Assembly: GCA_040285855.1 (NCBI GenBank)
Contig: JAUFOQ010000016.1
Span: 2,108,001-2,172,000 of the forward strand
Direction of reading: 5' to 3'
Origin: Eukaryota sp. GEM-RC1
Taxonomy: Eukaryota
DNA length: 64,000 nt
A program made the position numbers and the translations under genes. A model generated the notes under the pieces. The model made no database searches. It saw nothing but the letters and a program-made list of their open reading frames with translations, and was not told where the DNA came from. Shown here one piece after another: positions 12,491 through 53,450 of the stretch (position 1 is its first letter; each line of letters opens with the position of its first letter).

Positions 12491-13109
12491 AAGAACATAC
12501 ATTTTCCTAAATACATTGAAACAGGAAACAAGCACTTTCCGTACCAATAAACCCTAACAGGTTGAAACATCGACTCTAACACGTGTTAATATGTGTGTAC
12601 CGTGTGAGCGATTTTTAAAAAGTTCTACATGGAAACGGCTTAAAAAGTTAAAAAAATCTGACGAACTTCAGTCGGTTAACCGAGTGTTACCAGAATTTGA
12701 AAGAGAAATTGGAACAGTCAAAATAGCACGTATGGTCTACATCCACTATTGAACTACCACGATACCAGTGATCTACTTAGTTTTATCACTATCATTTTCT
12801 CCTATTTCTCTTGTTGAAATTCATATTTAAATCGGGTTATGACAAAACTAAAGGAGCGTATTTCTGTCTTTCTGAAATCATCTTCAAACACTACATCTGC
12901 ATCTAAATACAGTGCATCTAAATACAGTGGATGGAAAACAGAACCGAACGAGTTGAACAAAGTATGTGTGACACAATTCAGATAGTTCACACTTTGAAGA
13001 AGCAAAACGGAAGTACATACCATTCCTGCTCTATCCACTATAAACGGAATAAACTCAAGCAATTTCAGCAAGGTAGACTACTAAAACCCAACAGAAACCA
13101 GGGATATAT

Positions 13110-15750
13110 GGAATAAAAACACTAAAATAAACACAAATACTAGAACTCAATATCATTAAAGCAACAATCATTGCCATTAAAACTCACATCAGCTTTTTCT
13201 TCATAAAAAACACTGAGAGCCAATAGAGCTTTTGAAATCATGATAGGAATCGTTTTAAATATTGTAAAAACAATACGATTCAACCAAAATTTGAAATCAA
13301 ATTTCTTGTTCATTCTTTTTTTAACCACTTTCTCAAAATCGGAGAGAAAACAAAGAGCATCTCTACCAAGTCGACCATAAATTGAAATTGCAAAAGGACA
13401 TAATTTGTACTCAACATGTCTTATATGTTTGAGAGCAGTCAGTGGTTCATCATATTTGTTTCTCTTGTATTGTTCTGAAAAATCCAGTGGAGAAACTTCA
13501 TTTTTACCATCTTTGAATGCACTTTTTTGCAAACATCCACAGTAATCACATCAACAACGGTTAGTTCATCGTTGCCTATGGAACTATGACATCAGCTCTT
13601 CTTTTACCAAAAGTCTTATCAGAATCACTATTTTTTGAATTATTGATTTCCAGTGACATCAACAGTCGCTCAACGAAAGGTTCGATTTTGTAGGACTTAC
13701 ACATGGCATGAATTTGATCTCTAACAGCATCAGTAAGTAATGAAACGATTACAACTCAAAACGTGAGAAAAAGTAACTAATTTACCACATTAGCATTGAA
13801 GATCATTGGGTAAATTAGAGGGCCACAGGAAACATCGAAGTCTGAATGTTGTAGTCCATTGGTGATCATTCAACAATAAACCATAAATCTGAGGAATTTG
13901 GTTAATCAAAGCAACTGAAGAACTGTCCTTCAAATCGATTAAAAAACTTGCGAAAGCTGGATTTTTTTCTTTGGCCGAGCCAAGTCGAATTTTAAAATCC
14001 AGACATTCAAAATGTTTTAAAAGGTGTTTTTGGAGTTTCTTAAGAGCAAATTTTAACGAAATGACACATCGTTCTGGTATTTCACAAATATCTGCTGGAA
14101 AACAAGTTTGCCAGAGGTCAGGTGAAATTAGCGACAATTCTGATCTCAAATTTACCAAGAAAAAACTACTTGTCGAAACAAGAAGATTTTCTTGACTTGG
14201 GTACCGTCTACAGAACTCAAAGACAAAATTCTTACCACCACCAATGAAAGCAGATTTGGTCCACCATTTAGACGAAGTGAAACCAATACCACCTAGATGA
14301 GGATCTGAGAAGATGTGATTGTTCAAAGCAGCAGGATCCACTGATAACAAAAATGCATGAAAGTCAGTACGAATTTTGTTAAAGCTTCTACAGAAGTTAT
14401 AGGTAAGTACAGGGGAGATAGCGAAGCAGATGGGTAACTTTTCCTGAATAACAAATTTTTAGCATAAATAATTTGAGATGTTTTTCCAATTGCAATTCCT
14501 TAATTTGATCTAATTCTTTTCGCATTGAATCCAAATATACATTCAGATCTTTAACAATGTTGTCATGTGAACCAAGATAACAACCTAGAAATCTAAAGCT
14601 TGAAGATAAATGGTTCACAAAGGGAACCTCTAAAGAATTAACAATTAAAGTTACAGGTACCTTGACAATCAAAAACATTTTTGCACATTTAATTGAAGTC
14701 CAATTGCATCGTACAAATCAGCAGCCTGATTCGCAATAACACGAAGAGTTGACATAGGAGCAATAAAAGAAATGTCATCCATATAAGCTACGATTTCTAA
14801 GTCTGCATGTTCTTCTTTGAGTTTTTTCAGGATTGGATGAATAGCCAAACAAAAATAGAAGGGACCAAGAGGATCTCCTTGTTTAACACCAGAAACAGAA
14901 TTAAGAACAAATGAATTAAAAACTAAGTCAGAAGAGTGACCATAAAAACAATGAAAAAGGTACCTAATTCTGGAAAACTCTTTTCCAATTCAGAACAAAT
15001 GGCAGATCGTTTAACAGAATTAAAAGCATTCTTAAAATCCAAATTGAAAATGCAATTATTTTCAACCGCATTGAAGAAAACACCAGAAGAAAGGGCAGCC
15101 ACGGAAGCTCCATCAATGGTTTTAATACCATATTGATAAGGTGAAAAGAAATCCTTGGCTTTGTTCGAAATTCTTCCAAAGACAACAGAAGCAAACAAAC
15201 GGTAAATAGCTTCACCGACAGCAATAGGACGGATTTTCTTGTTAGGCTTAATCAGTGCAACCAAACCAGAAGCAGACAACTCTTGAGGAGGAACAACCTT
15301 CGATAACAAAACATTGTTGAAAAAAAGACATAAATCTTCAACAATAAGTGAATTTTGACGTGAAACAGATTTGAGCATATCAAAAGTAATACCTGAAGGT
15401 CCAGGAGCTTTTCCTGAAGGGAGTTTTAAAATACAACTCATCAACTCATCCACTCTAATGGGGTTTTCTTTCCAATACAAAGAAGGCAAAGGCTTGACAG
15501 GAAAAAATTTTTCCAATGGATGAAGAGCCTGAATTTGAGAAACAGTGTCCTCAGAAACAGGAGCAAGATCTGATGAAGAAATGGCATTCTTAGCTGAACT
15601 ATACCTACCTCGAAGAAGTTGTTGACGTACAACTTTATCCTTTGGTAATTTCTTTGGAGCAAACACTTTCTTAGGGCGAGTACAGGATTGAGATTGTTTC
15701 TCAAGAAAAAACTTCCAGATGTGAAGAACATCCCAAGAACCTAGTGAAAG
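13110..15750 (-). mobile_element. CRE/SLACS-like non-LTR retrotransposon (RT plus restriction-like endonuclease), 5'-truncated and frameshifted
   Basis: KAPGPSG, IRPIAVGE, LDFKNAFNSV, GVKQGDPLGP (~14865-14893), AYMDD (~14775-14790), GGIGF, then PFAISIYGRLG in the REL region. Confidence 0.9.
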
Positions 15751-16924
15751 CGCAGGGATATTGCCGTTTAATATATGTTACTTACGTTTGCCAGTCAAGT
15801 TGTCATTCTGATGCTGACTCTTTGCTATGTACAGTCTGATTTTTTCATATTCACATACATCATTTAGTTGTATTTTCTTTTTAGCAAGATCTAAATTAAT
15901 AACAATAAGTACATAATATAGTAACTCTTTCCTAGTTCTATTTATTGTAAATGTACTAAACTAAACAACTAAAATTTGATATCATTAAAACAACACTCGT
16001 CGCTATCAAATCTTACAACAGCTTTGTCCTCATAAAACGAACTCACTGCTAGTATTTAATATGAAATAGTTCTTTTTATTCTCCCCTTTTCTATCTAGTT
16101 CCTTGGAGGATTCTTCGGACTACATGATCTCCAGTGAATGTGTTTTTGATAAGCAGAGACTGTCTACAAACACTCGGTGGATTTCTTCTCTTTTCCAGGT
16201 GCACAACACGAAGATTCAACAGCATTTTAACGGATGTTCTGTCTTCTTGACTACTTTTGTATTTGACAAATTGAATTTTTTCATGAATAATAGTCAACAG
16301 GTAGCTTGTAAACTCAAACAGATCTTCACATTCCACTGATGTTTAAAGACTAATGTAAACATAGAAGATATATTTGGCGTTAAATCAATTGAACTCACAA
16401 ACTCTTTATAGCAAAGAAATAGGAACCATTTTGATGACATAATATCTGTAGTAAACAAATTCAACAATGATCACAATGAATGATTTTCGCATCTCTATCA
16501 GCACCAACTAACAACAATTTACAAGACCATCAATATTGGATAATGCCAAATTATTTGTTTTACGGTCCAAAGAAAAAACATATCGAACATTAGAATATTT
16601 CTTTTTTTGTTAAACCGTATTCTGTTTCAACCCTCTATAAAACAGAGTAAAAACTACTACATCTCATTTCTTACCTAAAAACGATCTACCTTGAACTTAA
16701 TTGACTGAATCATTGAAAGACCGTATTACTGTATTTCTTTTATTAGAGTTGGTATGGACTGAATTTAACTATACGGTGTACATATACATAAAATCAAGGT
16801 AATTCACAAACTCATTGTAACAATTAAAATCATAAATCTCATACACAACAAACAAATTCCATAACGCACACATAACAATGAACATTTCAAGGACTCCTAA
16901 TAGCCCTTCTGGAGTAGGCTTTTG

Positions 16925-22829: not shown

Positions 22830-24690
22830 TTATAAGAATGCCTTCAATTCAATCTTTCGCTCAAGTATTTTCTCTGAATTGGAACAACACTTTCCACCCC
22901 TTTACCATATTTTAAATTGATGTACGGATCTCCATCTGATCTTCTTTTCATTCTAAAGTAATTTCTTCAACAAGAGGAGTTAAACAAGGGGATCCTTTAG
23001 GACCCTTTTTCTTTTGTTTGGCTCTTCAATCCATTTTAGTTAAGTTTAAAGATAGATTTCCTGATATTCATTTGTGTGCTTACGCTGATGATTCTTCACT
23101 GATTGGTCCTTTAAGTTCTCTTAAGGATGGTTTAAAACATTTTGTAAGTTTATCTCAATCAATTGGTTTAGAAATTAAACTACCTAAATGTTTTCTTATT
23201 GGTAAGCGGTTTGCGGAACTTATGTATGGTGAGCAATCTATCCAGTTTGTGGACTATAACACTGAAGCTGTCCGTTTTTTGGGTTCCTATTTTGGCAATT
23301 CTTTGCAGATTGAGAGTGTGATCAAGAATTATCTTCAGAAAATCAAAGTTCAATTGCAGACTATACAAGATCTCAAGATCGATAACCACTTGGCTTTTTC
23401 AGTACTTTCGGTCTGTTTTGGATCGAAAATCAATCATCTTCTTATATCTTTACCATCTGAGCTTTCTCTTGGTTTTGCTCGTGAGTTCAACTCTTTGAGA
23501 ACTCAATTTTTAGGGCATTTGGTTGAAATCAATTGTTCCAAAATTCCTTATCATGCCCTTTTCAGTTCAAAATTTGGTGGTGTTGGTTTTCAAGAGCTGA
23601 ATATTTATGTAAAAGTGCTTTCGTTGGTGGTATGAAGAACGTTCATTTTGAGAGTAAACTTCGGTTCGAAAATATTTTCGATTTAGTTGTAGACGGCTCT
23701 TACGCTTTATTGAACTCTTTGGAGGAGTTAGTTCAAGGTTGGCCTATTAAAGTATGGAACAAAAGTTTCCCGAAAAGCGTTTCATCTATTCCTGATAGGT
23801 CAATTGAATTTCTTCCTCTTGCTGTAGTTAAGTTACAGAATGCTACATTACTTGGGTTGGAAGACTTGGATTTTAGTAAAAGACTTAGTGTGACTAAGAT
23901 TGATAATCCCGTCTTTGCAGCTTTTTTATGTGACATTCAACAACCTAGACCTTTTGGTTTACATTTGAACAATGATGCTTGGAAGCAAAATATGCGTCTT
24001 CGTTTAGGTTTATTCCCTAGTGGTTTGCTAAATAATTCAATCTGTGTTTGCGATAATCGATCTACAGCCACATTTCGTCATGTTGTTAGTTGCAAGAAAT
24101 TTTTGCAATTTCGATCTGTTCTACATAACGCTGTTCGTGACGTTACTTATGAAATGTTCAAATCCTACATTTATAGTTGTAAAATTGAACCTCTTCTGAA
24201 ACATTATAGTGACAATAACGTGTTTGATTCTCGGCGTGGTGACTTAATTGCTCCTTTCCTGGATTCATCTCAAGTTGTGGATGATTTTACTGCAGTTGAC
24301 CCGTTTGCAAAAGTCTACCAAGATTCCATATTGAATGATTCGAATGGTCATCTGGAAAAGGCTGAACAACGAAAGTGTTCAAATTATGCGGATACTTTGC
24401 AGAAGCTTAATGAACATCTATATTCTAAGTTTTCATTTGTTCCATTTGCCATTTCAATTTTTGGTAATATTGGTCCAGCCGGTTTAAAGTTTTTCAGTGA
24501 TTTTAGTCTTTTATGTCGTTCTAATGGCAAGGTGTTTAATAGCGCTGTATGGATTAATCGAATTATGTTCGCTCTTTATAGAAGCATTCCCAAGTATTTA
24601 CCATTTATTCGAAATTGTATAGGGACAATTCTCGTGTTGATGTGGAGAATTTAACTTCTTTCATTTTCTGAATTAGTATGTATTAATTTA
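22830..24690 (+). mobile_element. CRE/SLACS-like non-LTR retrotransposon, 5'-truncated
   Basis: KNAFNSI, GVKQGDPLGP, AYADD, FLGS, GGVGF, C-x-C..H..C finger, RRGD..DFTAVD..EQRK REL motifs. Confidence 0.9.
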
Positions 24691-27600
24691 TTGTTGCAAA
24701 TAAACTCTCATATACAGTGAAAATACAAAAGGGTACAACAAGTAATTCGAGTGTGAAGCCGAATTCAATAATTTCAATTTAGCACAATATTTTTGCATTT
24801 TAAATTTTTCACCAATAAACAAGGGGTTTTTAGCATTAGATTTAGCAAGTTTCTTGTTGGAATCATTACAAACATCGATAGACATAACATCAGCAATAAT
24901 GAAAGATCCGTCAAGACCAGGAAATATGACATCACCGCGGCTATTTCCAAACGATTTGTCAACAGCTGTATCATCAAACAAACCAGCCAGAACTGGTTCT
25001 AAAAAGGAAACTATTCCACAAGATTTACACATACAATAAAATTGATCCCTTACTGAATCATGAACCTTACTTCTAAAAGAAATAAAACGGTTACAATTCA
25101 ATAAATGTGTAGGTGTTACAGATTGCCCACATTGGCATTTCAAATTATGTGGAAGGTTATCAGGCCAAATATATGACCGTAAACGCATGTTTAATGACCA
25201 AGAGTTATCATCAAGACGAAGACCGTAAACTTGAGGGATTTGAGTAATCAGACATGAAGCAGAGCTATTAGAAACATCCATTAAGAAATTTGCAAAAGCG
25301 GGATTTTTTTCCTTGACCATACCAAGTCGAACATTATAATCCAAGCTTTCAAAAATATTTGTGAGTTTCTGTTGTAATTTTTTCAGACAGAACTGAAGAT
25401 TAGTCGAAGATCTTTCAGGTATTTCAGACACAGATTCTGGGAAACACTGAGACCAAACGTCAAAAGGTAATTTGATTAACGCTTCGTTTAAGTCAAATAA
25501 ATATTTACATGAATTGGGGTTAATAACGGAAATATCCTTAGGAGATCGATTAACAAATTCAAAGATGAAATTTTTCCACCGCCTAAAAAAGCAGATTTGC
25601 AAAGAATTGATGATTTGGTAAAACCAATACCACCAAAATGAGCAGAAGTAAACAAATGACTCCTAAGTAACGTTGAATCAACTTCTAACAATGAAGCAAA
25701 AAATTAATCCTCAACTCGTTAAAAGATCTACAAAAGTTCAGAGCGATTGAAGGAGCAATAGATCTCAAAAGATGTGTGATTTTTCCGGAGTAGCAAATTT
25801 TTAAAATAAAAAACTTGATATGTTTTTCAATATCATATGAAGAAATTGTGTTGAGTTCTGAACCAATTTTGTCCAAACAATTAGATAATTCTTGAGAAAT
25901 TTTAGGAACATTCCCAAGCCAACATCCTAGAAAACGAAAAGCATCTTCAACATAATTGATAAATGGAATCTGAACTCCATTAATAAATAATTTTTGGGCA
26001 GATCTACCAATTAATACACATTTGTCTGGGTTCAGAGATAAACCTAATGTTTCATAAATATCAGCCTCTTCCACAGCGACTTTTTTTAACAATTCAAGTG
26101 GACCAATAATAAGAATATCATCCATATAGCCAACTATCTTAAGGTCCGGGTATTTTTTTACAATACACAAAAGCGAATCATGAATAGCCAAACAAAAGAA
26201 AAAGAGGACCAAGAGGATCTCCTTGTTTGACACCAGACATAGATTTCAATGAATATGAATCATAAATTAAATCGCTTGGTTTTCCATAAAATAAATAAAA
26301 GTAGGATGTCAACTCAAGAAAGTCTTTTTCAATAGCAGCAAAAACAGATTTACGACTGACTGAATTAAAGGCATTTTTAAAATCAACATTAAAAATGAAA
26401 TTATCATCATGTGAATTGAAGAACAAATTCGATGTTAAGGCAGCAACAGAAGCCCCGTCATTTGTCTTAATTCCAAATTGAAATGGAGACAAAAAGCGAC
26501 CCGCTTTATCGACCACTCGATTAAACACAATTGATGCGAATAAACGAGAAATTGATTCTCCAACTGCAATTGGACGGATTCCATCAGGCTTAATTCCGTT
26601 ACCTGGTTTTACTAAAGCAATAAGTCGAGCAGCAGTCAATTCAATTGGAGGAATAACTTTCAAACAAACCATCTGTTGAAAGTAATTAGCAAGATCTTTA
26701 GAAATTTCTGGAGCTGCCTTGCAAGCAGCTTTCAACAAATCAAATGAAATGCCTGAAGGTCCAGCTGCTTTACCTTTAGGAAGTCTAGCAATAGCATTTG
26801 CAACTTCAGTTGGGAAAATAGGATTATCAATCCAGAATTGACAAATTTGAAATTTAACGCACAAAAACTCTTCTTTTGGATACAAGTTGACCAATTTCTG
26901 AACCGTTTCAGAATTTGGAATAGCCATTGCTGAAGAAAAGATAGACTTAACTCCAGAACCATAACGACCACGAAGACATAATTTTCCGACGACCTTACGG
27001 TTGGAAAATGATTTAGCCTTTTCAGAACTTGATTTCCTTAACATCCTTTTGTTCTTTTTGGCAAAGAACTTCCAGACCCTCGTGATGTTCCACCGGTTCT
27101 GGTTCAGGTTTGAAGTAAAAGATTGTAATTCCATAGCAAGAGGAATAGAAGCCGAAGGACTGGATTCAACTGGAATTTTGACTGGACAACGTAAAGAATC
27201 GATCGTTGTACAAGATTTACAAAAAAGAAGGGGTCTACCATTAAACACATCAGTCACAATTTTATGACAAAAGGGCAACTAGAAGAATTTTTAGTCGCTG
27301 GTTTTTCTTTCAAGTCACTAACTGAAGCAAGAAGTAAGTCAGCGGAATCAAGGTCTTCAGAATTAGGAGTATCAAACGAGTCAAGGTCAAGAGATGAATT
27401 GAGAGAAAAGGAATCAGACTGAAGTTTTAACTGTTCTTCTTTGGCTACTGGACATGTTGTTATACAATGGCCAGACTGGCCACAATTAGAACAACACCTA
27501 GAAGTCTTAATTGGTTTCAATGAAATTTCTTTTACAATTAAATCAGGTTGAACAGGAGGGTCAACAACATCACAGGAAGCTTTAAACTTCGAAGAGCGTG

Positions 27601-28060
27601 AAGCAGCATAAGAAGAAGAATTAAGACCAACTGATGAATTGAGCACTTTCTCGGCTAAAGGGCTTACAGGAAAAACCGGAATCGTAACTTGATGCAACGA
27701 AGGTGTACAAGGAGCAGGAGAATCAGAAAAAACAGCAGACGGCAATTGATCAGAAAGAGAAGGAGCATTCAAATTGGAGAAGGACTTTCTCATAACCAAT
27801 ATATTGGAAAGTGGAGGATACGGGTTTCGGTGAGGCAAAGAAGAAGATAAAGAAGTGACATGATGAGGAGCAACCAGAGGTCTCGCAGCAGAAAAAGATG
27901 ATGAAAGAAACGAAGCCGACTTACCACTGAAACGATTTACAAGGTCAGGGGGGTTTTTTGGGAAGATGATGAGAAGCAGATTTTGGAAGAAAATTGCCAG
28001 AAGGCATGTGGGAGGAAAAAACCCACTGAAAATGAAAATGAAAACAATGCTCATGTCAAG
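24688..28060 (-). mobile_element. Near full-length CRE/SLACS-like non-LTR retrotransposon (CCHC knuckle, RT, REL), frameshifted
   Basis: CSNCGQSGHCITTC knuckle, KAAGPSG, GIRPIAVGE, VDFKNAFNS, GVKQGDPLGP, GYMDD, CQCG..H..C, RGD..ADV..EKFK. Confidence 0.9.
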
Positions 28061-28507
28061 AGCTTCAACGAAAAAATTGATGACGTCGATACTATTCCAG
28101 AAAACACTGCTTCGGAATACTTAGACTTATCATTTATTCCATCAACTTCTAACTAGGTGGAAAGACTATTCAGTCGTGCAAAATTAACTCTCGGTATTTC
28201 TTCTTATTTATCTAATTATAGGGCAGCTGAGAGGACGTTTACAATCAAAAATGTTCGAGAAACAATTGTTTCTTTTATACAAAAGAACTTGGATTTAGTC
28301 AAATCAATTGTGAGTAAGAATCCTCATCAGACAACAGGATTAAATTCGGCCGAGCTTGTTATAGATGTCGATTCAGAATGATAGTACGTTGATTTTTGTC
28401 GTATGATAATAAAGAATTAATTGTAATTAATTGCAATTAATTAATTGTTGGTCTGTAGAATTGAAATTAATTAATTGTTGGTCTGTAGAATTAATAATTT
28501 AATTTAA

Positions 28508-36454: not shown

Positions 36455-37659
36455 ATGGACGGTTTGTCTATCTCTTCTTGGACTGATCGTAGAGTCTACT
36501 GCTCCTATTGTTATTGATAATGGATCCCATTTGTTGAAAACCGGATTCGCTGGTGATGATGCCCCTCGTATTGTTTTCCCTTCGATCGTCGGTCATTCTA
36601 AGCAGCAAGGGATGTTCAGCCGTGATTTTTATGTCGGCGATGAAGCCCAATCTAAAAGACACGCTCTTTCAATTAAATACCCAATTCAGAATGGTATCAT
36701 CACTTCTTGGGAAGTATGTGTTCTCTACTCGTGTTTTTATCTCAGGACATGGAAGTATGAATCTCTTTTCTTTATGATCTCAGAAAATCTGGCATCATAC
36801 TTTCTATAATGAATTAAGATCAGAACCCAGTGAAAAACTTGTACATCTCACAGAACCACCATTGAATTCTAAGTCCAACAGAGAAAAAATGACCCAAATC
36901 ATGTTTGAAACTTTCAATGTTAAAGGAATCTACATTACATCATCTGCAGTTCTTTCATTGTACGCATCTGGTCTTATGACAGGCATCGTTTGTGATTCTG
37001 GTTACGATTGCAGTTGTATTACTCCCATCGACGAAGGATATTGTCTTAACCACGCTTGTCAACAATTTGATATTGCCGGTGGTGATCTCACCAATTATAT
37101 GAACAAACTTTTGTCAATCAGAGGTCTTGTATTCCCTTCATCTGACGTTGAATGTGTGCAAGTCATGAAAGAAAAAGAGTGCTATGTTGCTCTGGATTTC
37201 GACCATGAATTAACAAAAGCAGAAAGATCTTCAGCTCTTGATCGTCACTACACTTTACCCGATGGTCAAGATATCACCATAGGATCTGAACGTTTCAGAA
37301 CACCCGAAGCTCTCTTCAAACCAACTCTAATTGGTCTTGAATCTCCTGGTATCCATGAGCACATCAACAAGTCAATCATGAAGTGTGATGTTGGACTCCA
37401 TCGCGAATTGTATCAAAATATTGTGTTGTCCGGAGGTAGTACAATGTTTGATGGAATCGACAAACGTATGGAGAAGGAAATAATCAACCAAGCACCCCCT
37501 GGTACTCAGATTAAGGTTGTTGCTCCCCCAGAAAGAAAACACTCTGTGTGGATTGGAGGTTCCATTATATCATCTTTGACAACCTTTGAATCTATGTGGG
37601 TTACTCGTGAGGATTATGAAGAATGTGGTTTCTCAATCGTTGACAGACAATGTTTTTGA
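36455..37659 (+). CDS. Divergent actin; join(36455..36461,36493..36713,36746..36754,36784..37659), 370 aa
   Basis: [34 protein letters not shown] (after splicing), [25 protein letters not shown]. Three GT-AG introns of 31, 32 and 29 nt restore the frame. Confidence 0.92.
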
Positions 37660-41582: not shown

Positions 41583-42097
41583 ATGTTTTTGAAACCCAAA
41601 CTCGCTCAAGATGCGCTCTTCACGCTTTAAACAACTTTTTCCAACGTTCTGAAGTGTCATTAGATGAATTAGAAGCCATTGCTGCTTCTCTCTCACCAAA
41701 TTCTTTATTTTCCCCACATCATTCTTGGTTCAAATGGGGAAACTATGATATCAACGTTATTTCCATTGCACTGCAAAAACGAAATTACTGTATTGAGTAC
41801 TTCGACAAACGTTTACCTCTGAAAGACATCTTTTCCAGTTCAACCACCTCTTCCGCCCTTCTCCTGAATTTCCGTTGCTGGTCAGACTTCATTCCATTCA
41901 AAAAAACCCGTCATTGGGTTACTATACTATGTAAACAAGATGACTGCTTCATCAACATGGATTCCAAACTAAGAGAACCTCTGTCACTTAACAAAGAATC
42001 TCTACTAGAATATCTGGAATCTCTTGAGGATTTACAAGTTCTTGTCATTAAACAAGAGCTTGATTCTCATCAAGACTGTAGTTTAGAAGAAGCGTAA
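41583..42097 (+). CDS. Josephin-domain deubiquitinase (JOSD1/2-like); probable missing T in T5 41586-41590
   Basis: In frame upstream of ORF 41654: ETQTRSRCALHALNN (catalytic Cys), then GNYDINVI, RHWVTI and NMDSKL. Confidence 0.85.
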
Positions 42098-42741
42098 CAT
42101 GAACGTTGAAGATCCAGGTGGATTAGCACTGCGCTGGTTGATTCTAGCAGATGAACAGTATTGTCACTAAAACCACAGGGAGAAATGATGATCATTTTGG
42201 CTGCAAAATGAAGAAACAAAAATAAAACTGTTAAATTGTCAATATTTGTAAGGAGAATCGTTATACCGCCAAACAATGACATCATGGACAATGGGAATAT
42301 GAAGTTAAATGAAATCAAATGGATTGAAATTGAGCAGTTTGAGATTAAAAGAAATAATATAGAAGTGACTAAAATACCAAAAAAGAAGCGACACAGACCA
42401 TTGGATAAACTAGTAGGTCGATGTTCAACTGCTGATACCACAGCAGAAAGTGTAAGAAGAAGTGTAGTAGTTAAGGACGAGAGACGTGTCCAGTAGTGAT
42501 GAAGTGATGACACAAAGAAGAGCGAGTGTAAAAGAAGTAATGAAGAAAAACGCCACACTGAAAACGACAAGTTCTTGTGCATTTTGAGAAGGAGAACTAG
42601 GGAAGATAAATGACAGAGAACGGTGAGACATATGTGACCAAAAGAAAGAAAACAGACCAAATAAGCCAGAGCTACAGCAAACAATGCTTCAATTGATCGG
42701 GGTAGGTAAACTTCTGGTCTTATCTGATGCCTAGAGTGCAT
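42070..42741 (-). CDS. Multi-pass membrane protein, unknown function
   Basis: 223-aa ORF with several long hydrophobic segments. Confidence 0.6.
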   Translation of the reverse strand: MHSRHQIRPEVYLPRSIEALFAVALAYLVCFLSFGHICLTVLCHLSSLVLLLKMHKNLSFSVWRFSSLLLLHSLFFVSSLHHYWTRLSSLTTTLLLTLSAVVSAVEHRPTSLSNGLCRFFFGILVTSILFLLISNCSISIHLISFNFIFPLSMMSLFGGITILLTNIDNLTVLFLFLHFAAKMIIISPCGFSDNTVHLLESTSAVLIHLDLQRSCYASSKLQS

Positions 42742-43844
42742 AAGTAGTTTTCATTTTGGGTGAATATCCCCACACACCCAATTCCCACAAACTCTTTTTA
42801 CTTATGGGATATACTTTTGGAATACTTTGGGACTCAAGACTCGACTTAACGAGCATGTCTATCCACGCTTCGGAAGACACCAAAGTGAGGGATGTTTGGT
42901 CCTATCTCTGGATGGGGACGATCCATCTTCTGATGAGTCATCAGAGACTCTGATGATGCTTCTGTGAGGATCCTCTTGCGTGAATTTTATTCCCCTTCCC
43001 TTTCCTCTCCCCAACAATTCCCCCATCTCCTCTTCTGTGGTCTGTTGTGTCCTTTTATACATGCCATTATCCTTCCTAAGGTTATCTGAAGTACAATCTA
43101 GTGCAGAACTTCACTTCCTTCGTATTCAATCGAGGTAGCTTCTTTCTTCCATTAAAGTAAGTTGAAGTTGTATTTCCCATATGTGATTTTAAATTTCTGA
43201 GATAAATATTGTTTATTCGTAATTAGAACCAACCAATGTGTGCTGCAAATAGGGATCATTACCTACCGATATATTTGTCTCGCAAAGGCAGTTGCTTCTG
43301 CAATTTCCAATTGTTTAGTAATATAACCATTGGGTTTTTAAGACTGTATATCATTGGTCTATCGCACAGTAGCAATAATCAGTCATATAGAATGCTTAAA
43401 GAGAGGACTGGATGTTGTCACACTTGTTTTCAAGGTGTTTGAGAGAAGTCAAAATGAAGTAAAAGTAGGAACAAAGGAAGATCTGATGATGGGGACTGAG
43501 TGTTTCTAAAAGGAAGACGAGTCTTGAGTTTCTGGCAAAAGACTTCTGATCATTGTAGCCTGAATAGAGACCGGAAAAGGCGCATCTTAAAAGATAGAAT
43601 CGTGAATGAAACTAACATGAAGATATTCTGAGAGAGTGAGGTATAATGACTAAAATTGTTGAGAGGAGGTAAGATAGTTGTACACCGTATCTAGAGAAGG
43701 AGACAAAGTTTTGCCATAAATTAACCGAGTTGTAAAGTGGAAAGTAAACTGTTGACAAACTAACAATCAAGTAGGAAACTGAATCCTGTCGAGAGGAAAG
43801 TGACGAGAACGAATCACAATGTCGACAATTGTTATTTCCTTCCC

Positions 43845-44790
43845 ATGTCTCCTGTCAGTCTTCCCGAAGTAGTTCACGGCCCGGAGTATACACTTTATCC
43901 TTGTGGTTCATCCTCTCACAACCATGGTGACACTATATTTCCCCCGCCTCTTAAGAAGTCTCACCTGTCTTCTGTAGATGACATCCCACTGTATTGCCTT
44001 ATTGATTTTAAAACGGTCATTACCGATAGTGAACGACTTACTCCACTCCTTTTCAATGTTAAGAAGAAATCTCTTCCGAAATGCACTACTACAGAATCTT
44101 CAACAGAAATTGTTTCTGAAGAACAAGAGGCTGCTGAAGTTCCAACAATCAGTGAAGAAATTGAAGTGTCCAGGCCAGAGCTGGTACCAAATGCGGAGGA
44201 TGATCAAATCATCCTTATTGTCCTCACATTTATTTACACCAATTTCGTTTCTACTGTTGTCATCAGTACCAAAAAAACAAGTGATTTTGATGGTGTTCAA
44301 ACAATTACTTTTCCATCAGAAGAAGTCATGATTAATGGTCTTATATCTTTACTGTCCGAGAAAAAGCCTAGATTGCTTATAAGTTATAACTCTGAAAAAT
44401 TTTTGTTCCCGTTTTTAATTGCACGATGTAAACTTTGGAACATCTCCACCACATTTAATGTGGATAGGCCATTCAGGCCTTTTATTCCCATCTGGTTCTA
44501 TAGATGGTGTAAGCAAAGCGAATTTGGACCATTTATTTCCCTTAACATGACAAATGTTGTAAAGTCAACCTATGTTTTCAAAGGTGGTAGAGGTTTAGAA
44601 AATGTTTGCTCCAAATTGTTTCAAAAGGCAATACCTAATTTATTTTTATCACCAACTGAATTCAAACCTTACTTCCAACCAATTCAAAAAAATCCTAAAA
44701 ATATCAACGGTTAGCCCTGAACGGAAGAGGGAGTTTACTTTGCTTGCTCAAAATATTAAAACTTCCAAGTTATGGATGGATGACAGAAAA
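43845..44790 (+). CDS. Degenerate family-B DNA polymerase 3'-5' exonuclease-like domain (probably the N-terminus of the Fanzor ORF)
   Basis: Motif order matches PolB Exo: LIDFKT (ExoI-like), DDQIILI, FPSEEVMI..KPRLLISYNSEKFLFPFLIAR (ExoII YNxxxFDxPxLxxR-like), ISLNM..GLENVCSKL. Catalytic Glu and Asp are substituted. Confidence 0.65.
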
Positions 44791-44859
44791 CGCAACTCTC
44801 TGGTTGAAGATTTGCTGAACAAAATTAAGATGTTGTCCGAATTGAAGAATTATTTTTTG

Positions 44860-47701
44860 ATGAAGAAATTCAGCTTGTTTTAGACCGCCCTCCGATTAAA
44901 GTCGTAAAAAAAGGATTGGATAAGGTTTTCAGAGATTATGAAAACATTCAATTAATTAAAATCTGTTCTAAACGAAATCAAAAAAGCAACTGTGAGGGGG
45001 AACCACCTTCTTGAAGCATTTGCTTCTACGTGAATTTGAAGATTTTGGAAGAATCGAAGCTGAATCAATAGTCAAAGAAAGAGAATTGATGTTACTGCAC
45101 GATGACCCTTCGTTGTCCATGATTGGAAATGATTCTGAGTCTTCTGAGAATTGTAATATCTGCTATAATTACAAAGACTTTTCGGTTCGCTTACCAGATT
45201 TGAGTCCTTTTTTGGCTCTTGGATCAATAAGGCACGTTCTCCGACGAATGTATGTGGAGAAAAAAAGGCTTGCGGTATTTCCGACTTGAAAATGTCAAAA
45301 ATAGAAGCAGAAGCAGTTTTACAAAATGAAAAATTTGATCATTCTTTGGAAACAAAAAATCGCATTGCACTACTGTAATAATTTTTATCCAATTCTTGAC
45401 TCTCTGTCTCATGAAATTGGAACTAACAACATTTCTTTTCCTAATTTGGATTTTATGTCAGGCATTTATCATTATACGGCTAAACAAATTGAAACCAATT
45501 ATGCTAACAATTTGGCGAAATACTTCCACAACTATGTCTTTCGCTACTTTAACATTGTTACGTTGAAGAACTATCGTCTTAAACAAATTAAAGAGCAACA
45601 CTTAAAGAAGGAATTGAAATCAAAATTAAATTCCATCAGAGAACTGATTATTGATGGAAACTTTGAAGACATTCCAATTGATGATCATATCATTTTCCCC
45701 TTCCCGCAATCAGAATTGACTTTAATCTTTTTTGCATATTTGAAATTCTGTTTGTTCCCTACCATTGCCAAAGGCAAGAATCTTTACTACGCTCAGAAAG
45801 TCAAGCCACTACAATTTCTTTCTCATGCTGTTTATATCAACAGAATCATTCAGTCTTTTTGTTCAATTGATGGAAAACCCTTAAAGGTTAATAATCCGTT
45901 CCCAATGACCAAGACGTTGCTCCCACAGCATATTAGATTAGATACTGCTTGGATAAACCAAAGAGTTTTAAATTTGAAAGGTTCCGCTAACGTTATTCGA
46001 AAGGAAGTATTTGACTCTGTACTTACCTAAACTGCTATTACATCATCAGGATCATTTGGTCTGAAGTATTCTTCGATTGTAACAGATGGCATTTCCTGTT
46101 CCTTGGTTATGATTCGAAAAGATTTGCTGGATGAAAACGGTAACACCTTTGAAGATTTTACCGCAAAACCACTAATATCTTCGGAAAGATATATTGACTC
46201 TTTAACGTCGGAAGACATTGAAAAAATGAACCTGACAGAAAAGAGAATAATTGGCATTGACCCGAATGAATATGACTTGATGTTTTGCGTATCTCCAAAA
46301 ACAAATGAAGAGATATTAGTTGAAGAATTTTCTTGTTCCGACAACAGTCCCACGAAAAAACGGCTACCTTCAGAAATGAGACTGAAACAGAAAGGTGGTA
46401 TTAAAAAAAGAAAAAAACAATTGAACCAATGGAGACAAACCCCATCTCAACGAGTACGACTGAAACCAAACCACTTTTTGACCAGCTTCAGGTACAGTAC
46501 TGGGGAGAGATCATATGACCGAAAAAGCAAGAAATATCGGTTGACTGAAAGAAGAAAACTAAAAACTTCCTTCTTTGAAATTACGAAAACAGAAACTGAA
46601 AGATCGCTCCAAGATTATACAGTCGAAAATTCTAATGGTAGAACTGTTTCTGGTCAAGAAATCCTCGACGAATTTGCTCTTGCCGTCTCTAGAGGACAAC
46701 AAAGGTCCAGTTTCAGTGATGAGTTCGAGACTTACATCAAAGAAGCTGAACGGAGTTGTGTATACCTGAGTGATTTCTATGAAGACGATTGGTTTACGAA
46801 AAGGAAGTTTCAAATTTATTCCAACAATCAACAGAGTGAAAAGAATATGTTGGAAAGGTTTAAATTAACCTATGGATCTCCAGAAGACCTTGTCCTTGGT
46901 TACGGGGATTGGAGTTCTAAGGGAAACACAAGAAAAGGTAAAACTCCAGCTATTAGAGGAGCAGAAATCCGAAGAATGTTAAGAAAATTCGGGTATAAGG
47001 TATTTCTAGTTGACGAATACCGTACCAGCAAGTCCTGTTCAAAGTGTGCTGCTCAAGGACTATTTGGATTATGTACAAATGATCCATCTATCAAAGTTTT
47101 AGGCCCAAGAGGACTGCGTCAAATAAGACGGAAGAAGAAGAAACTCAAGGAAAAAGTACTGGTCTACAACCGTAAGGATCCACCGAAAAAGAGAAGCTTT
47201 GAGGACGAGTGGGAGAAGATAAAGAAGTCCGTAGAAGTAAAAGCAAAGTCAACACCATGGGGGCTGGTAAAATGCAAAAGGTGCAAGACTTATTGGAACA
47301 GAGATCTCAACTCTTCGATAAATATCTATTCCATTATCGAAGCCGCCATCAAAGGTCAAGCTAGACCATCTATTCTCGAGAGATCAAAAACTTTAACAAC
47401 TGATTTCGAGAGTGGTAATGTTACTTTGAAGAGAGATCGAAAAAAGACTGCAGCGAAAAAGACTCGTAAAGAAAGAGAGTGTGGAGAATGTGGACAAACA
47501 GGTCACGACATACGAACATGTCCACAGCTAGATGAGTCAAACCAGGGTTCACCTAAAACTGGATCGAGAAAAAGAAAAGGAGGAACCCCAACGAAGGCAG
47601 TCAAAAGAAGAAGATCTCCCTTGAAGAAATCAGTCCACCATCAACGGTCGGGCAGCGCTATGTGTATGAAGCTATCTCAGTCTCACCGTATCATCTCATA
47701 G
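44860..47701 (+). CDS. Fanzor1 (eukaryotic TnpB-like RNA-guided RuvC endonuclease); disrupted in this sequence by homopolymer frameshifts and one in-frame TAA at 46028-46030
   Basis: IETNYANNL..YFHNYVFR, PFP..LPQHIRLDT, IVTDGISCS, RuvC-I IGIDPN (46259), YGDWS (~46904), RuvC-II VDEYRTSKSCSKC (47012), CKRC and RuvC-III WNRDLNSSINI (47303). Confidence 0.92.
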
Positions 47702-47815
47702 CATAGCGTGTCTGTGATGCCTAAATGGATATGACCAAAGTGGGAGCAGGATTTACTTTGGGAGGATTATCCATTTGGAATGAACTTCACAGATGGAACA
47801 TGAACAAACATCTAG
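47650..47815 (+). ncRNA. Putative Fanzor omegaRNA (scaffold plus guide)
   Basis: Stems cgctatg/catagcg and tatga/tcata span the stop codon; nested stems tctgtga/tcacaga, aaatggata/tatccattt and ccaaagt/actttgg follow. This 3'-end position is canonical for TnpB/Fanzor RNAs. Confidence 0.7.
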
Positions 47816-47846
47816 ATTAATTTTGCAAAATTCGTTTTCCAACAAT

Positions 47847-49175
47847 ATGATTGACATTTGGCTTCTTCGTGATGATAAGGATGGTAATTCTGAAGCTGTA
47901 AGGGAAAGTCAGCGACGTAGATTTGCTGATGTCACTCTTGTTGATCAGGTTATCGATAAGGACAAACAATGGCGTGAATCGGTTGTCAAGAAGGAGAAAC
48001 TTCGTGCTGAGCTCAATAGAACCTCCAAGCAAATCGGCAAACTTGTCAAGGATGGTGAAGACATCACTGAACATCGAGCTACTGTTGCCTCTCTAAAACT
48101 GGAAATCACTCAATTAGACGCTTTTGAAGCCACTCTTCTTTCAGAACGTGATGAAATACTTAAAACCATTGGCAACATTGTTGAGCCCCAAGTTCTTTTC
48201 TCAAACAATGAAGAACAAAACCGTGTCATCTCAACCTTCTCTTCCCCTGAACCCCGCGATCACCCTGCTACCCACAGTCATGTCGACCTTCTCCACATGA
48301 TCGGTGGTGTTGACTACGAACGTGGAACAAAAGTTGGAGGAAGCCGTAGTTATTTCTTGACTGGTCCCGGAGTCAAACTCAACATGGCTCTCATCATGTG
48401 TGGACTTAACTTCCTATCTGATCGGGAATACACTCCCTGTCAAGTTCCTTACCTAGTCAAACCAGAAGTAATGGCAGCTACAGCTCAGTTGTCAGACTTT
48501 GATGATCAACTCTACAACGTAGGTTCAGATAAGGATCTCAAGTATCTCATTGCTACTTCAGAACAGCCTTTGTCCGCTCTGCATCAAGGGGAATGGTTAG
48601 CACCTCAGGATTTGCCAAAGAGATATGCTGGTTTCTCTACTTGTTTTAGGAAGGAAGCAGGAACTCATGGAAGAGATACGTTAGGAATCTTTAGAACTCA
48701 TCAATTTGAAAAGGTAGAGCAGTTTACAGTCACGGAACCTTCTAAATCCAAGGAAATGTTTGATGAGATGATTGGTAATGCTAAGGACTTTATGGAGCTG
48801 TTAGGTCTTCCTTATAGAGAGGTTGAGATTGTTTCAGGTGCATTGAACAACGCTGCAGCTGTTAAACATGATGTTGAAGGGCTTTTCCGACATTCTAATG
48901 TCTATAGAGAACTGGTATCGTGCTCAAACTGTACGGATTATCAGTCAAGAAGACTTGATATTAGGTATAGAAGTGCAGGAAAGTCTGGATCTCTTAAGGG
49001 GCAGGCTAAAGAGTACGTTCATTTGTTGAACTCAACTTTAACGGCTACTGGAAGGACCCTTTGCTGTATATTGGAGCAGTATCAGACCCCTGAGGGTATT
49101 GAGGTTCCAAAGGCATTGGTTCCTTATTTTGGATCTGACTTTATTCCGTTTGTCAAGGCTCCACTGAAGAATTAG
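47847..49175 (+). CDS. SARS1: Cytosolic seryl-tRNA synthetase
   Basis: MIDIWLLRDDKDGNSEAVRESQRRRF, YLIATSEQP, CFRKEAG..GIFRTHQFEKVEQF, ELVSCSNCTDYQSRRL, HLLNSTL. The conserved start is ATG 47847. Confidence 0.97.
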   Translation: MIDIWLLRDDKDGNSEAVRESQRRRFADVTLVDQVIDKDKQWRESVVKKEKLRAELNRTSKQIGKLVKDGEDITEHRATVASLKLEITQLDAFEATLLSERDEILKTIGNIVEPQVLFSNNEEQNRVISTFSSPEPRDHPATHSHVDLLHMIGGVDYERGTKVGGSRSYFLTGPGVKLNMALIMCGLNFLSDREYTPCQVPYLVKPEVMAATAQLSDFDDQLYNVGSDKDLKYLIATSEQPLSALHQGEWLAPQDLPKRYAGFSTCFRKEAGTHGRDTLGIFRTHQFEKVEQFTVTEPSKSKEMFDEMIGNAKDFMELLGLPYREVEIVSGALNNAAAVKHDVEGLFRHSNVYRELVSCSNCTDYQSRRLDIRYRSAGKSGSLKGQAKEYVHLLNSTLTATGRTLCCILEQYQTPEGIEVPKALVPYFGSDFIPFVKAPLKN

Positions 49176-50329
49176 ATTTTTAAAAAATGTTAGGTTTTTT
49201 TGTTTTTGAAAATTAGTGTTAAACTTTATATTTACTCATTTGTTTTTGTGGTGTGTTTTCATTACCTAGACTTAGTCTTTAGGGGAGCTTGATTGTAAGT
49301 TAATTTGAAGTACCATAAATTTTTACAACATTTGTTTGTGCTGTACTTCTGTTATTAAGATGACATTTTATCCAGATTGACATCAAACTGGCACAGTTGC
49401 CGCCTTTGTGTTCTATATTTGTTATATCGTCGAGGTCCTAATACAAGCTTAGTAGAGGGTATGCTTGTATAGTTTCACAAAATAAACTCATAGATTTCTT
49501 TTTACAAAAACTGATCTCTATATAATACCGGAGAGAGTCATTTTGGAATTATATATAGATTTCATTTACTAGTTACATAAGCCCTTAGCCATTATAATTT
49601 GAAAAAAAAAGACTGGAACATCTGATGGACGAGCCTGTAACGCAAGATAAGCTAAACTTCAAGGAAACAATGATATTGAAGTTTGTCAATTTTTACGGCA
49701 ATTATATTTGTTCTATAGACATTAGCTTTAGGGAAGCGTTTGATCTCAAGGTGGTCGATAATTTACCAGATTAACGAAAACCTGGTTTATTTTGGTTTGA
49801 TTAATCTACCTCTCTGTCAGGATTGATCAGCATACTTCAAAAGTAACTGATTGATGTTATTAAGTTTCCATTTCAATGGTAGTGATTTTGTAATGATAAA
49901 AATTTCATTTTTCAAAACAGAAATTCAAAGGACTCTAATACCTAGGCCTTTTTTATTACCACCATATTCAAATTGAGATTAATGGATGTCGCAGCGGTAG
50001 AGATCGAAGTATACACCACCTGTTCTCAGACGATCATTTAAAAAAAATTTAACATCAAAAAGTGCCAAAAATAAATGTAAAATATATTTAATTAAAACAA
50101 AATATAACCCAAATACAAACAAAATATGTATTTGTTCCGTTTGGTGCCTAAGTTCTTTAAATCAATTTTCACAAAGTTGTATAAAGACTGTGGTACTGTT
50201 GACCAGGAATTTTCGGTGTCCAGTGTTTCATAGCTTTTATTATGATATGTATTTTTGTACCCTCCATCAATAAACTGTTCTTTAAATATAGTACTAGTAC
50301 AGAAAGGGATGATCAAATGCATTGTGTGT

Positions 50330-53300
50330 TCATCTATGGAAACTGCGAGAAACTGTACTAGTACTGATTTAAAGAACTTAGGCACCGAACGGAACAAAGA
50401 AAAAATCAAACGGTTATGCCAAATTGATAAGTTAAATCTCTTATTCTGAGTCTTACACATAGATCCAAAATCAGTTAAAAACTTGGAAGCCATTTCACCA
50501 ATACTATCGAAAATAGAAATAGCAAATGGAACAAATACAAATTTTGAATATACATTTTGATTGAGTTTAGCAACATCTTTGGAAGAGAGATGTTTATTCG
50601 GCACCCAATAAGGTAACCTTCCTACAAACTATGAAATTGTAAAAACAAACAAATTATACTAAGATTAAATCCAAACGACTTCATCACCACGCGGTAAAAG
50701 ATTACGTTTATCAACATTAACCTTCACACCAAACTTGTACAATTTCTCAATTAATCTAGAGAAATAGAAAGGCATGTTCCGATATAAGGAAAACACTATA
50801 CGGTTTTTCCATTCAGCCATTCTAAACTTACGCTTCTTTTCTTTACACAATTCATCGAAATCCTTGAAAAATTGATCACCAGCAGGACTAATAGATCCAA
50901 AAGAGAAACAGCAAAAGGTTGAAACACAAATTTGGAATATGAGTTTCTATTTAATTCTTCTACTTGAGAGTCATACTTGGAGTGTTTGAGCTTTTCAGCT
51001 GCTGTTAATGGATTAAAAGAAGAATCTAATATCCTACTAACACAAGATTTGTTACATACATCTACTGTAGTAAAATCCATAAATGATTGACTCGACTTAA
51101 GCCACGGAGTATGTAGATCCCCTCTTTTTGATCAGTAAATTCATTTTCTGAAAGATGATTCAAAACTGGTTCAACTTTAGAGTGAAAACCATGTGCTTTA
51201 AACATGGAATAACAAGAATCACGTACACCATCATGAATTACTGCACGGAGATGAATAAAATAACGACAATTAATTAAATGACGAAAAACACCATTAGCTG
51301 CACAAGAGCACGTTGAATAGTTTAAAAAATTTGCAGGCCAAATAGCCAAACGAAGACGCATATTGATCATCCAAGCTTCATCAGATAGATGTAATCCATA
51401 CACCTTTGGAATTTGAGAAATAAATCCAGAAGGACCACTATTACAAAGATCGATTAAAAAAGCAGCGAACTCGGGACTATTAGTTTTAGCCAAGCTAATA
51501 CGATTATTAAAGTCCAAGAGTTCAAACTCCTTGTCAATTTATTTTGCAGCTTACATACAGCAGACGGTACAGATGAAATATTTTTAAAGGAGTCTCCTTC
51601 AAATGAGCAGGGAACAAAGATTCCCACATTTCAGGAGACAAAGATGATACCAAATCTTTAGCAGATTGAATCCAACGGCAATTACTGGAATTCAACAGAT
51701 TGATTCCATCCAAGGGAAACCGTTTCAAAAATTCAAACATAAAATTCTTAACACCTCCTAAAAGAGCAGATTTTCTAATGATTTTTGCATGGGTGAAACC
51801 TACTCCTGCGACTTCAGAAGAATAAAAAGCATGAAATGGAATCTTAGACTCATCAATTTCAGCCAAGTTAGAGAGAAAATTTGTTCTAATAGAATTAAAT
51901 TTCTTGGCAAATGTTTCAGTAAGGGAATAGTCTAATGAACGTAGAAAATGATTAATTTTCCCGGAAAAACAGAAAACAAATCAATTTTACGTTTTTCAGC
52001 TGTTTCTAGGTGATTAAAACCTTTTGAATTCAAGCCATTAACATAAGTTTGAGCACATGGATCTACTGTTGTAACATCAAGGATAATTTGACTAGAATCA
52101 ACAAAAGGACCATGTAAGTCATCTCGACGAGAATTATTAATTAAATCAAGACCCAACTTACTAAATAAAGGTTCAACTTTGGCATGAAATCCATGAGCCT
52201 TAAACATTTCAAATGTAACATCTCTTACAGCATTATGAAGAACTGAGCGAAATTGAATAAATTTGGGGCATTTAATTACACGTCTAAAAGTTGCACTGCG
52301 ACGATGGTTACAAATGCACTCAGAATTGTCCAGCAATTCTGTAGGAAACAAACCTAAACGCAATCGCATCTTTAATTTCCAAGCCTCATCAGACAAATGC
52401 AAACCAAAAGGACATGGTTGTTGAGTGATCAAACAAGTTCAATTCTTAATATCATTTAAGAAAGCAGCAAAAACGGGATTATTAATTTTAGTAATACTAA
52501 AACGATTTTCAAAATCCAGGTTGTCAAATGCCTTCAAAAGCTTATTCTGAAGTTTGACCACACATAAAGGGAGAGACAATGGAGATTTTTCAGGAATACT
52601 GGGTAAATGAGAATGAAAACAGCTATTCCAAATATCCAAATCCAAATCGTTAATAACTGAGACTAACGAAACTAACCAAGGAGTAGACTGAATGAGATTT
52701 TCAGTAAACGAAAAGCCGTATCTGGATTTAAATTCAAATAGAAAATTCTTCATTCCACCAATAAACGCACTTTTGGTTAAGTATGAAGCTCATGAAAAAC
52801 CCACACCGCCAAAATTAGCTGATGAAAACGCGTGATAAGGCAATTTCGAGTCATTAACATCTACAAGATCACTTAAGAACTTAGTTCTCAAAGAGTTAAA
52901 TTTGCTGGCTAAATCAATAGTAAGTTCAGGATTGACTGAGCGCAAAAAGTGATTGATTTTGGACGCAAAACAAGTCGTCAATAGGGAAAAAGAAATATGT
53001 TTACCAATTTTCAGCTCACCAATCTGTTTAAGCTTCACCGAAATTTGTTCGATGAATTATCCACCTTCAAACGTAATTGATCGCCATTACCAATGAAAGT
53101 ACCCAAAAACTTAATAGCATCGACACTATAATTGGAAAACGGAATAGTATGCCCTTCAACAATGAACTCAAAAGGTGATGAACCGATCAGAAAACATTTT
53201 TCATAATTCAACTGAAGACCAATCTCATTAGAGAGCTCTATAAATACTGGAAAAGCTGATAATAAATCATCAATAGATCCAACTAAAGAAGCATCATCAG

Positions 53301-53450
53301 CATAAGCACACAAATTCAAAGAAGGGAACTTCCTTTGAAACTTACGAAAAATTGACTACAAAGCCACACAAAATAAAAATGGACCAAGAGGGTCGCCTTG
53401 TTTGACTCCACGTTGGGAAACCAGATTATCAGAATTATAAATTAGATGAA
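50330..53450 (-). mobile_element. CRE-like RT-REL retrotransposon (53450-~51970 plus ~50590-50330) interrupted by a second CRE-like copy (~50594-51940)
   Basis: GVKQGDPLGP, AYADD, GGVGF and REL ..LETAEKRKIDLF resume as SKDVAKLNQNVYSKFVFVPFAISIF. The inner copy has its own REL and a 3' UTR matching 78-520. Confidence 0.85.

Follow-up and report, generated by a model that had tools for sequence, protein, structure and literature searches.

The locus described here is quite likely a copy, with multiple breaks, of a young exonuclease-Fanzor1 gene that exists in several copies, is likely mobile and in its intact form is predicted to be an RNA-guided DNA cutter. It lies in a window of 64,000 nucleotides, the whole stretch of DNA that was analysed (Eukaryota sp. 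GEM-RC1, contig JAUFOQ010000016.1). Here, a frame of approximately 1,280 amino acids joins a PolB-type 3'-5' exonuclease domain directly onto the N-terminus of a Fanzor. Fanzor1 itself is a known family, and it is this architecture that is new. The features of the locus are, in window coordinates:

43845-47701, + strand: whole broken exonuclease-Fanzor1 frame, approximately 1,284 codons, traced by tblastn and a codon walk of the sister protein P0048
43998-44880, + strand: PolB-family 3'-5' exonuclease-like domain, predicted inactive (Pfam PF03104, E 3e-11)
44664-44676, + strand: frameshift 1 (+1), without a long run, missing in 6 of 6 spanning sisters
44853-44858, + strand: frameshift 2 (-1, in a T run), also in the sister P0047
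44889-45046, + strand: N-terminus of the Fanzor, which by inference comprises the first WED strand and the first REC helix; directly 3' of the Exo III helix and crossed by two frameshifts
44980-45000, + strand: frameshift 3 (+1, in an A run) and frameshift 4 (+1, in a G run), the latter also in P0049
45260-45266, + strand: frameshift 5 (-1, in an A run), from comparison with sisters
45348-45349, + strand: frameshift 6 (+1, without a long run), 5' of which ORF 45326 is out of frame
46028-46030, + strand: in-frame TAA in the WED region
46259-46267, + strand: RuvC-I DPN with the catalytic Asp, from motif positions
46310-46471, + strand: basic insert of 54 amino acids after RuvC-I, partly of low confidence in the model, filled in RCL and third-family relatives
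46574-46651, + strand: second RuvC insert of about 25 amino acids, with short strands in the model, common to the clade
47012-47047, + strand: rearranged RuvC-II Glu (DEYRTS) and first CxxC, from motif positions
47117-47233, + strand: zinc-finger (TNB) insert, a predicted basic helical hairpin that holds RRKKKKLK (AlphaFold2 helices 594-616 and 625-640, pLDDT 95-98)
47273-47311, + strand: second CxxC and RuvC-III NRDLN, with the catalytic Asp at 47303, from motif positions
47480-47521, + strand: CCHC zinc-knuckle-like motif in a basic C-terminal tail, from the sequence
47655-47794, + strand: candidate omega-RNA scaffold, with a hairpin spanning the stop codon and, behind it, a long rod (47710-47794), from RNA fold z-scores

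We compared the read-through protein, with an X at the stop codon, to known structures. It matched only three Fanzor1 structures at E-values up to 1 (SpuFz1 at 1e-16 in phmmer), and a 92-row profile returned the three Fanzor1 chains at E-values of 1e-75 to 4e-116 and everything else at 1.5e-5 or worse. An AlphaFold2 model of the read-through (pLDDT 79, pTM 0.77) matched SpuFz1 in Foldseek with an E-value of 6e-18 and a TM-score of about 0.66, and Fanzor2 with an E-value of 2.6e-3. The original prediction had called the RuvC triad that of a Fanzor1; profile and fold searches place the Fanzor1 structures far above Fanzor2 and TnpB, and by sequence and predicted fold the protein is a Fanzor1. The RuvC triad that was said to be retained is indeed found, with Asp at 46259 (IGIDPN), Glu at 47015 (VDEYRTS, six residues before CSKC) and Asp at 47303 (NRDLN). 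The signature described for Fanzors, D-X(125,275)-[TS][TS]-XX-C4 zinc finger-X(5,50)-RD (PMC3627910), is formed by D312, T567-S568, C571/C574/C650/C653 and R659-D660, and another Fanzor trait, a rearranged glutamate of RuvC-II that precedes the zinc finger by six residues (PMC10711439), is present as E564-x6-C571. The DPN at RuvC-I was seen correctly by the original prediction, but it is not unusual. DPG has been said to occur "near exclusively" at this position in Fanzors (PMC10711439). In our survey of 164 proteins from outside the clade, 111 could be scored (the other 53 lack a scorable motif pair), of which 56 read DPN and 55 DPG, and the active SpuFz1 also has DPN. A glycine at this position thus does not define Fanzor1, and given the 56 homologs we rejected DPN as a sign of damage.

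The sister protein P0048 (1,182 amino acids) maps to positions 43845-47393 of the window with a register drift of no more than 3 nt throughout, which indicates that the exonuclease and Fanzor parts belong to one frame, with no intron joining them. The window copy differs from P0048 at 33 of 1,182 positions, 7 of which fall into out-of-frame stretches. The true start is located around 43845, about 1.5 kb 5' of ATG 45326, which is not the start. Relative to P0048, the window copy carries one stop (TAA) and six single-base frameshifts (at about 44676, 44853, 44980, 44996, 45260 and 45348), two of these in the exonuclease domain and four in the Fanzor part 5' of the TAA; as assembled, it therefore cannot make protein. 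According to the original prediction, ORFs 45326 and 46103 lie in one frame, with a single nonsense codon between them. The shared frame and the intervening TAA at 46028-46030 hold, but the six frameshifts have to be added to the nonsense codon. That inactivation was recent is supported by the sisters spanning the TAA codon, which read Glu in six of seven cases and Lys in one. The idea that the gene could be resurrected by fixing one codon is not supported, given the four frameshifts in the Fanzor part and the two in the exonuclease domain, which had been overlooked. In an HMM of 84 unrelated Fanzors, P0048 residues 349-400 correspond to profile positions 10-61 (iE 5.5e-5). With the Fanzor N-terminus at 44889-45046, ORF 45326 is thus short of about 90 profile positions, and a repair of the TAA only would still leave these out. 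It is consequently very improbable that we are dealing with an ordinary-length Fanzor1 that starts at 45326 and is silenced by one codon, as had been proposed: the read-through from 45326 does fold as a Fanzor1 in the structure model, but its match to the Fanzor profile does not begin before about position 93-117, the part for positions 10-61 is located further upstream and beyond frameshifts, and the sisters P0041 and P0048 read through the break at 45348. Two further explanations of the TAA were rejected. An alternative code, in which TAA is read as an amino acid, is countered by host genes that stay open for 460-900 codons under standard stops and by the Glu in sisters at this site. An intron across the TAA would delete residues encoded by the sisters and would be unlike the short actin introns of the window (4 of 11 GT..AG pairs of 25-90 nt across the TAA keep the frame).

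We next weighed whether the breaks represent decay or assembly error. Four of the six frameshifts sit in runs of 5-7 identical bases, and two of those four also occur in a sister; no sister has the TAA or either of the two frameshifts that lie outside long runs. None of the 12 named sisters is a full-length copy. Their breaks fall at nine distinct sites (an in-frame 3-nt gap in P0044 is left out of this count), all nine at runs of at least 4 identical bases, compared with 28% of background windows, a pattern that fits long-read error, slippage or inheritance. The window copy may thus be intact or nearly so in the cell, its breaks being long-read assembly errors left uncorrected in a repeat. 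We consider this the less probable reading, though one of some weight: besides the runs at four of the frameshifts, several runs are broken repeatedly among the sisters (47186 in four copies, 45693 in three, 47276 and 45208 in two each), the named sister species were assembled from Nanopore reads with Illumina correction (PMC11316075), and the window's host genes remain open over long frames, whereas the reverse-transcriptase remnants are broken. Assembly error accounts poorly for the TAA, which is a substitution found in none of the seven spanning sisters, and for the two private frameshifts outside long runs. We therefore favor, with some reserve, real decay of the window copy.

The window copy belongs to a family whose 90% cluster contains 13 members, 12 of them named Eukaryota sp. 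GEM-RC1, dispersed over at least seven contigs that differ in length, with members 94-99% identical to P0048. By sequence, the family is young and multi-copy and, judging from copy number alone, likely a mobile element. The sister proteins are automatic gene models; two of them, P0042 and P0050, continue past the exonuclease into the N-terminal part of the Fanzor, where they overlap P0041. The consecutive locus tags of P0042 (exonuclease, GEM-RC1 family) and P0062 (Fanzor, RCL-like family) may reflect a chimera or a nested insertion. At least three further Fanzor1 families occur among GEM-RC1 proteins, one cluster having 26 members, and TZLM1-RC contributes fragments; together these (the P0217, P0060 and P0058 clusters; P0003, P0004 and P0207; P0062 and P0155) form a sizeable radiation, nearly all of it annotated in pieces. 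Eight relatives from these protists make up one branch (SH 100 in an unrooted FastTree phylogeny, three rows of which are less than half filled). The nearest Fanzor relatives carry the NCBI name Eukaryota sp. GEM-RC1 and the remoter ones TZLM3-RCL and TZLM1-RC, and from these strain labels we infer that all three are the Skoliomonas metamonads of PMC11316075; the protein identity of 94-99% points to GEM-RC1 or a close relative as the host.

The Fanzor part is enlarged by inserts. Its D-to-E spacing is 252 residues, whereas 111 other homologs range from 146 to 211 with a median of 168, and its CxxC pairs are 75 residues apart, compared with a median of 31.5 and with gaps of 60 or more in only 3 of 86 scorable others. 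A K/R-rich insert after RuvC-I, reported in the original prediction, is present (KQKGGIKKRKKQ at 46385). So is the zinc-finger insert, but its net size is about 40-45 amino acids rather than 70, the gap being 75 against the median of 31.5. The motif RRKKKKLK likewise occurs as described, at 47126, but it lies inside helix 594-616, predicted with confidence (pLDDT about 95), which leaves a function as nuclear localization signal unsupported; since it is part of this predicted helix, we rejected it as a free NLS. The RCL and third-family proteins have a D-to-E spacing of 277-281 and a CxxC gap of 77-78, and the inserts are thus features of the clade. Long inserts are also found in the unrelated Fanzor1 homologs P0139, P0146, P0147 and P0175, which include proteins of 1,033 and 913 amino acids and, in P0146, P0147 and P0175, CxxC gaps of 94-179 residues; the zinc-finger gap evidently tolerates large insertions. 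The CCHC tail is common to GEM-RC1 and TZLM1-RC relatives (P0003, P0059, P0060, P0061) and missing in RCL proteins. Only P0060 gave a zf-CCHC_2 match, at an E-value of 0.015 and below the cut-off.

We examined the exonuclease domain by aligning its motifs with those of the RCL orthologs and of four PolB loci. In P0048, PF03104 matches with an E-value of 6e-10, and exonuclease and Fanzor share one frame. In the window copy, Exo II reads YNSEKFL and has lost its Asp, Exo III reads DLLNK and has lost Tyr and Asp, and the register of Exo I is ambiguous between DFK and DSE. An active DEDDy motif set is thus absent from the window's family, and the exonuclease is predicted from its motifs to be inactive. 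The TZLM3-RCL ortholog P0055 is unbroken and 1,473 amino acids long, with relatives of 1,479, 1,222 and 935 amino acids at 90-93% identity, the first of which, P0204, is likewise an unbroken ortholog. P0055 aligns with P0048 over 1,210 columns that cover both domains (27% identity, E 3e-102) and matches PF03104 with an E-value of 5e-13. The DEDDy motifs FDVE, YNCDKFD and YCxND are kept in P0055, P0204 and P0206, the three copies that span the domain, and the RuvC triad is also kept in P0055 and P0204. On these motifs, the unbroken RCL protein would likely represent a naturally occurring DNA cutter that is guided by RNA and brings its own module for trimming ends. The junction between exonuclease and Fanzor is short and alike in the GEM-RC1 family and in the RCL lineage. 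An exonuclease HMM matched 11 of 233 fetched proteins, every one a member of these two families, the other GEM-RC1 and TZLM1-RC Fanzor families being represented by fragments only. Additional searches, within their limits of length and sensitivity, returned no more exonuclease-Fanzor fusions: one gave just the window's own fragment, one led to four loci, all ordinary PolB, and plain Fanzor clusters (score 0.75) came up as well. The best matches of the exonuclease are yeast Pol delta (E 9e-4, with P0206) and archaeal PolB (E 0.003, with P0042). Its structure model is poor (pLDDT 36) and fixes neither Exo I nor the position of the domain, and this model matches archaeal PolB only weakly in Foldseek, with a bias from the PolB rows placed in the alignment.

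A 2A/StopGo-like sequence, LxLDGDVEANPGP, precedes the exonuclease at about residues 103-111 of P0055 and 112-120 of P0204; the site reads NLGP in P0206, and the motif is absent from all six frames of the window. Class A 2A peptides contain GDVE..NPGP following a leucine-rich stretch (PMC12338488), and the GDVEANPGP of P0055 and P0204 resembles them as a putative skip site. The gene models disagree on the RCL sequence before this motif, which may form a product of its own.

The broken Fanzor copy sits in a compact eukaryotic genome, with a seryl-tRNA synthetase gene directly 3', a Josephin gene 5', and actin. The seryl-tRNA synthetase occupies 47793-49175 and likely starts at 47847, only about 50 nt past the candidate RNA rod, which places the element in or beside the promoter region of that gene. 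The divergent actin-family gene (36466-37659) has two introns of about 30 nt each (GTATG...CTCAG). Frameshifted RVT_1 reverse-transcriptase remnants are found at 13100-15800, 22900-24700, 24700-28100 and 50100-53400, the last also containing diverged repeats spaced by about 1,001 nt and an inverted repeat of 34 nt (50131-50164 / 50365-50398). Just 5' of the element, a 223-aa hydrophobic ORF on the minus strand (42070-42741) may be a host gene or part of the element; it had no match in Pfam, NCBIfam or PHROG. A left element end was not found within 42100-43840. No terminal inverted repeat of 14 nt with fewer than two mismatches links 42050-43900 to 47560-47900, where the search gave just two 14-mers with two mismatches each. 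Neither the element nor its flanks occur a second time in the 64-kb window, whose 27 + 60 translated frames match no transposase family. The candidate omega-RNA region has no Rfam match at gathering score. Its RNA fold z-scores were -3.0 for 47702-47800 (1 of 200 shuffles as good), -1.7 for 47650-47799 and -1.3 for 47620-47810; the fold is significant in the narrow post-stop window only, and one window inside the ORF scored -2.2.

How might an intact form of this gene work? Characterised Fanzor1 proteins use a 3'-end RNA and cut next to a TAM (PMC10432273, PMC11423790, PMC10530073). By analogy, an omega-RNA from the 3' end of the element (candidate 47655-47794 plus flank) would load the protein, which would then cut TAM-adjacent sites matching the flank and so favor persistence of the element, as for other Fanzors. 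After the RuvC cut, the displaced non-target strand would have a free, single-stranded 3' end on its TAM side, near the WED domain, onto which the exonuclease is joined. The ancestral exonuclease, catalytic by motif in RCL, could chew back this 3' end and hinder clean re-joining, the role that we prefer for it. In the GEM-RC1 family, where its metal ligands are lost, the exonuclease would be only a nucleic-acid-binding or vestigial module. Since no transposase was found, movement of the element would need one supplied in trans.

That the anaerobic protists in question possess a natural two-nuclease Fanzor1 whose captured proofreading domain trims its own cut ends, in the RCL form behind a 2A skip site, is a tentative proposal. 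Exonuclease fusions to MmeFz2 and SpuFz1 lowered editing (PMC12923547, PMC13434818), so that a helpful role of the exonuclease is not a given. Possibly, if doubtfully, the domain instead trims the guide RNA at its 3' end or merely binds nucleic acid, rather than acting on cut DNA. It is joined almost without linker to the inferred first WED strand, and in SpuFz1 that strand contacts the start of the guide-target duplex (PMC10432273). A binding role would also fit the GEM-RC1 family, which kept the domain though its catalytic residues are lost. A role on the guide is at odds with the sequence matches, every one of which is a DNA-polymerase exonuclease. Such exonucleases act on single-stranded DNA. 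We find it rather unlikely that the domain was left over by chance from a captured PolB gene, be it of host or viral origin, as a hitch-hiker without function. Its degeneracy in the GEM-RC1 family and its weak, mixed best matches are in line with this, and DnaQ-like exonucleases are known as accessory domains of other mobile elements (PMC6338049, PMC3627910). However, the in-frame junction is similar and of equal length in lineages that are 27% identical, and the catalytic motifs are intact in RCL, which together imply long retention under selection.

We found no description of a natural exonuclease-Fanzor or exonuclease-TnpB fusion in the literature covered, which consisted of papers free of subscription. 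The word "exonuclease" is absent from the main texts of PMC3627910, PMC10530073, PMC10711439, PMC10432273, PMC11423790 and PMC10691335, and likewise in the text supplements of two of these; Fig. S1B of PMC10530073 lists extra Fanzor domains and may bear on novelty. The literature search also returned no report of a Fanzor in Metamonada; the range of Fanzor1 would now extend to one metamonad lineage. If the trimming proposal is true, a natural Fanzor of the cut-and-trim kind would be seen here for the first time, its active and exonuclease-dead forms occurring in sister species. How Fanzor cuts aid the persistence of elements in eukaryotes is an unsettled question, and a Fanzor in which a fused 3'-5' exonuclease was retained while lineages diverged widely would allow for a direct test of end processing in persistence. 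It would also bear on editor design, where artificial exonuclease-Fanzor fusions failed. The window's own copy is of little weight here, being one damaged member; the unbroken RCL protein can be assayed as is, and P0055 or P0204 is the better assay object.

Our protein resembles the Fanzor1 enzymes SpuFz1, PpFz1 and GtFz1 (PDB 8gkh, 9cf0, 9cer) in its fold, its D-E-D triad, the glutamate six residues before the zinc finger and its multi-copy dispersed loci; it shares DPN at RuvC-I with SpuFz1. Known Fanzor1 proteins usually have 600-700 amino acids (PMC11423790), whereas the exonuclease-Fanzor is about twice that size and differs from the references in its PolB exonuclease N-terminus, its zinc-finger helical hairpin, its CCHC tail and the lack of inverted repeats in our search. 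The FRI domain of PpFz1, an insert of about 100 amino acids inside RuvC (PMC11423790), provides a precedent for the RuvC insert of our protein, which is about 80 amino acids long, in two pieces and basic. With the PF03104 proofreading exonucleases, RCL proteins share complete Exo I, II and III motifs in register. Unlike in the polymerases of this family, no polymerase domain lies behind the exonuclease, which carries, past Exo I, an acidic insert of about 40 residues; in the GEM-RC1 family, the Exo II and III aspartates are lost as well. The DnaQ/DEDD exonucleases of transposons also place a DEDD exonuclease on a mobile element, but none is fused to Fanzor or TnpB as described in PMC3627910 and PMC6338049. 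An exonuclease tethered to a Fanzor has been engineered with TREX1, TREX2 and T5 on MmeFz2 and with T5 on SpuFz1. Those fusions are artificial, whereas the exonuclease-Fanzor is natural and joined almost without linker.
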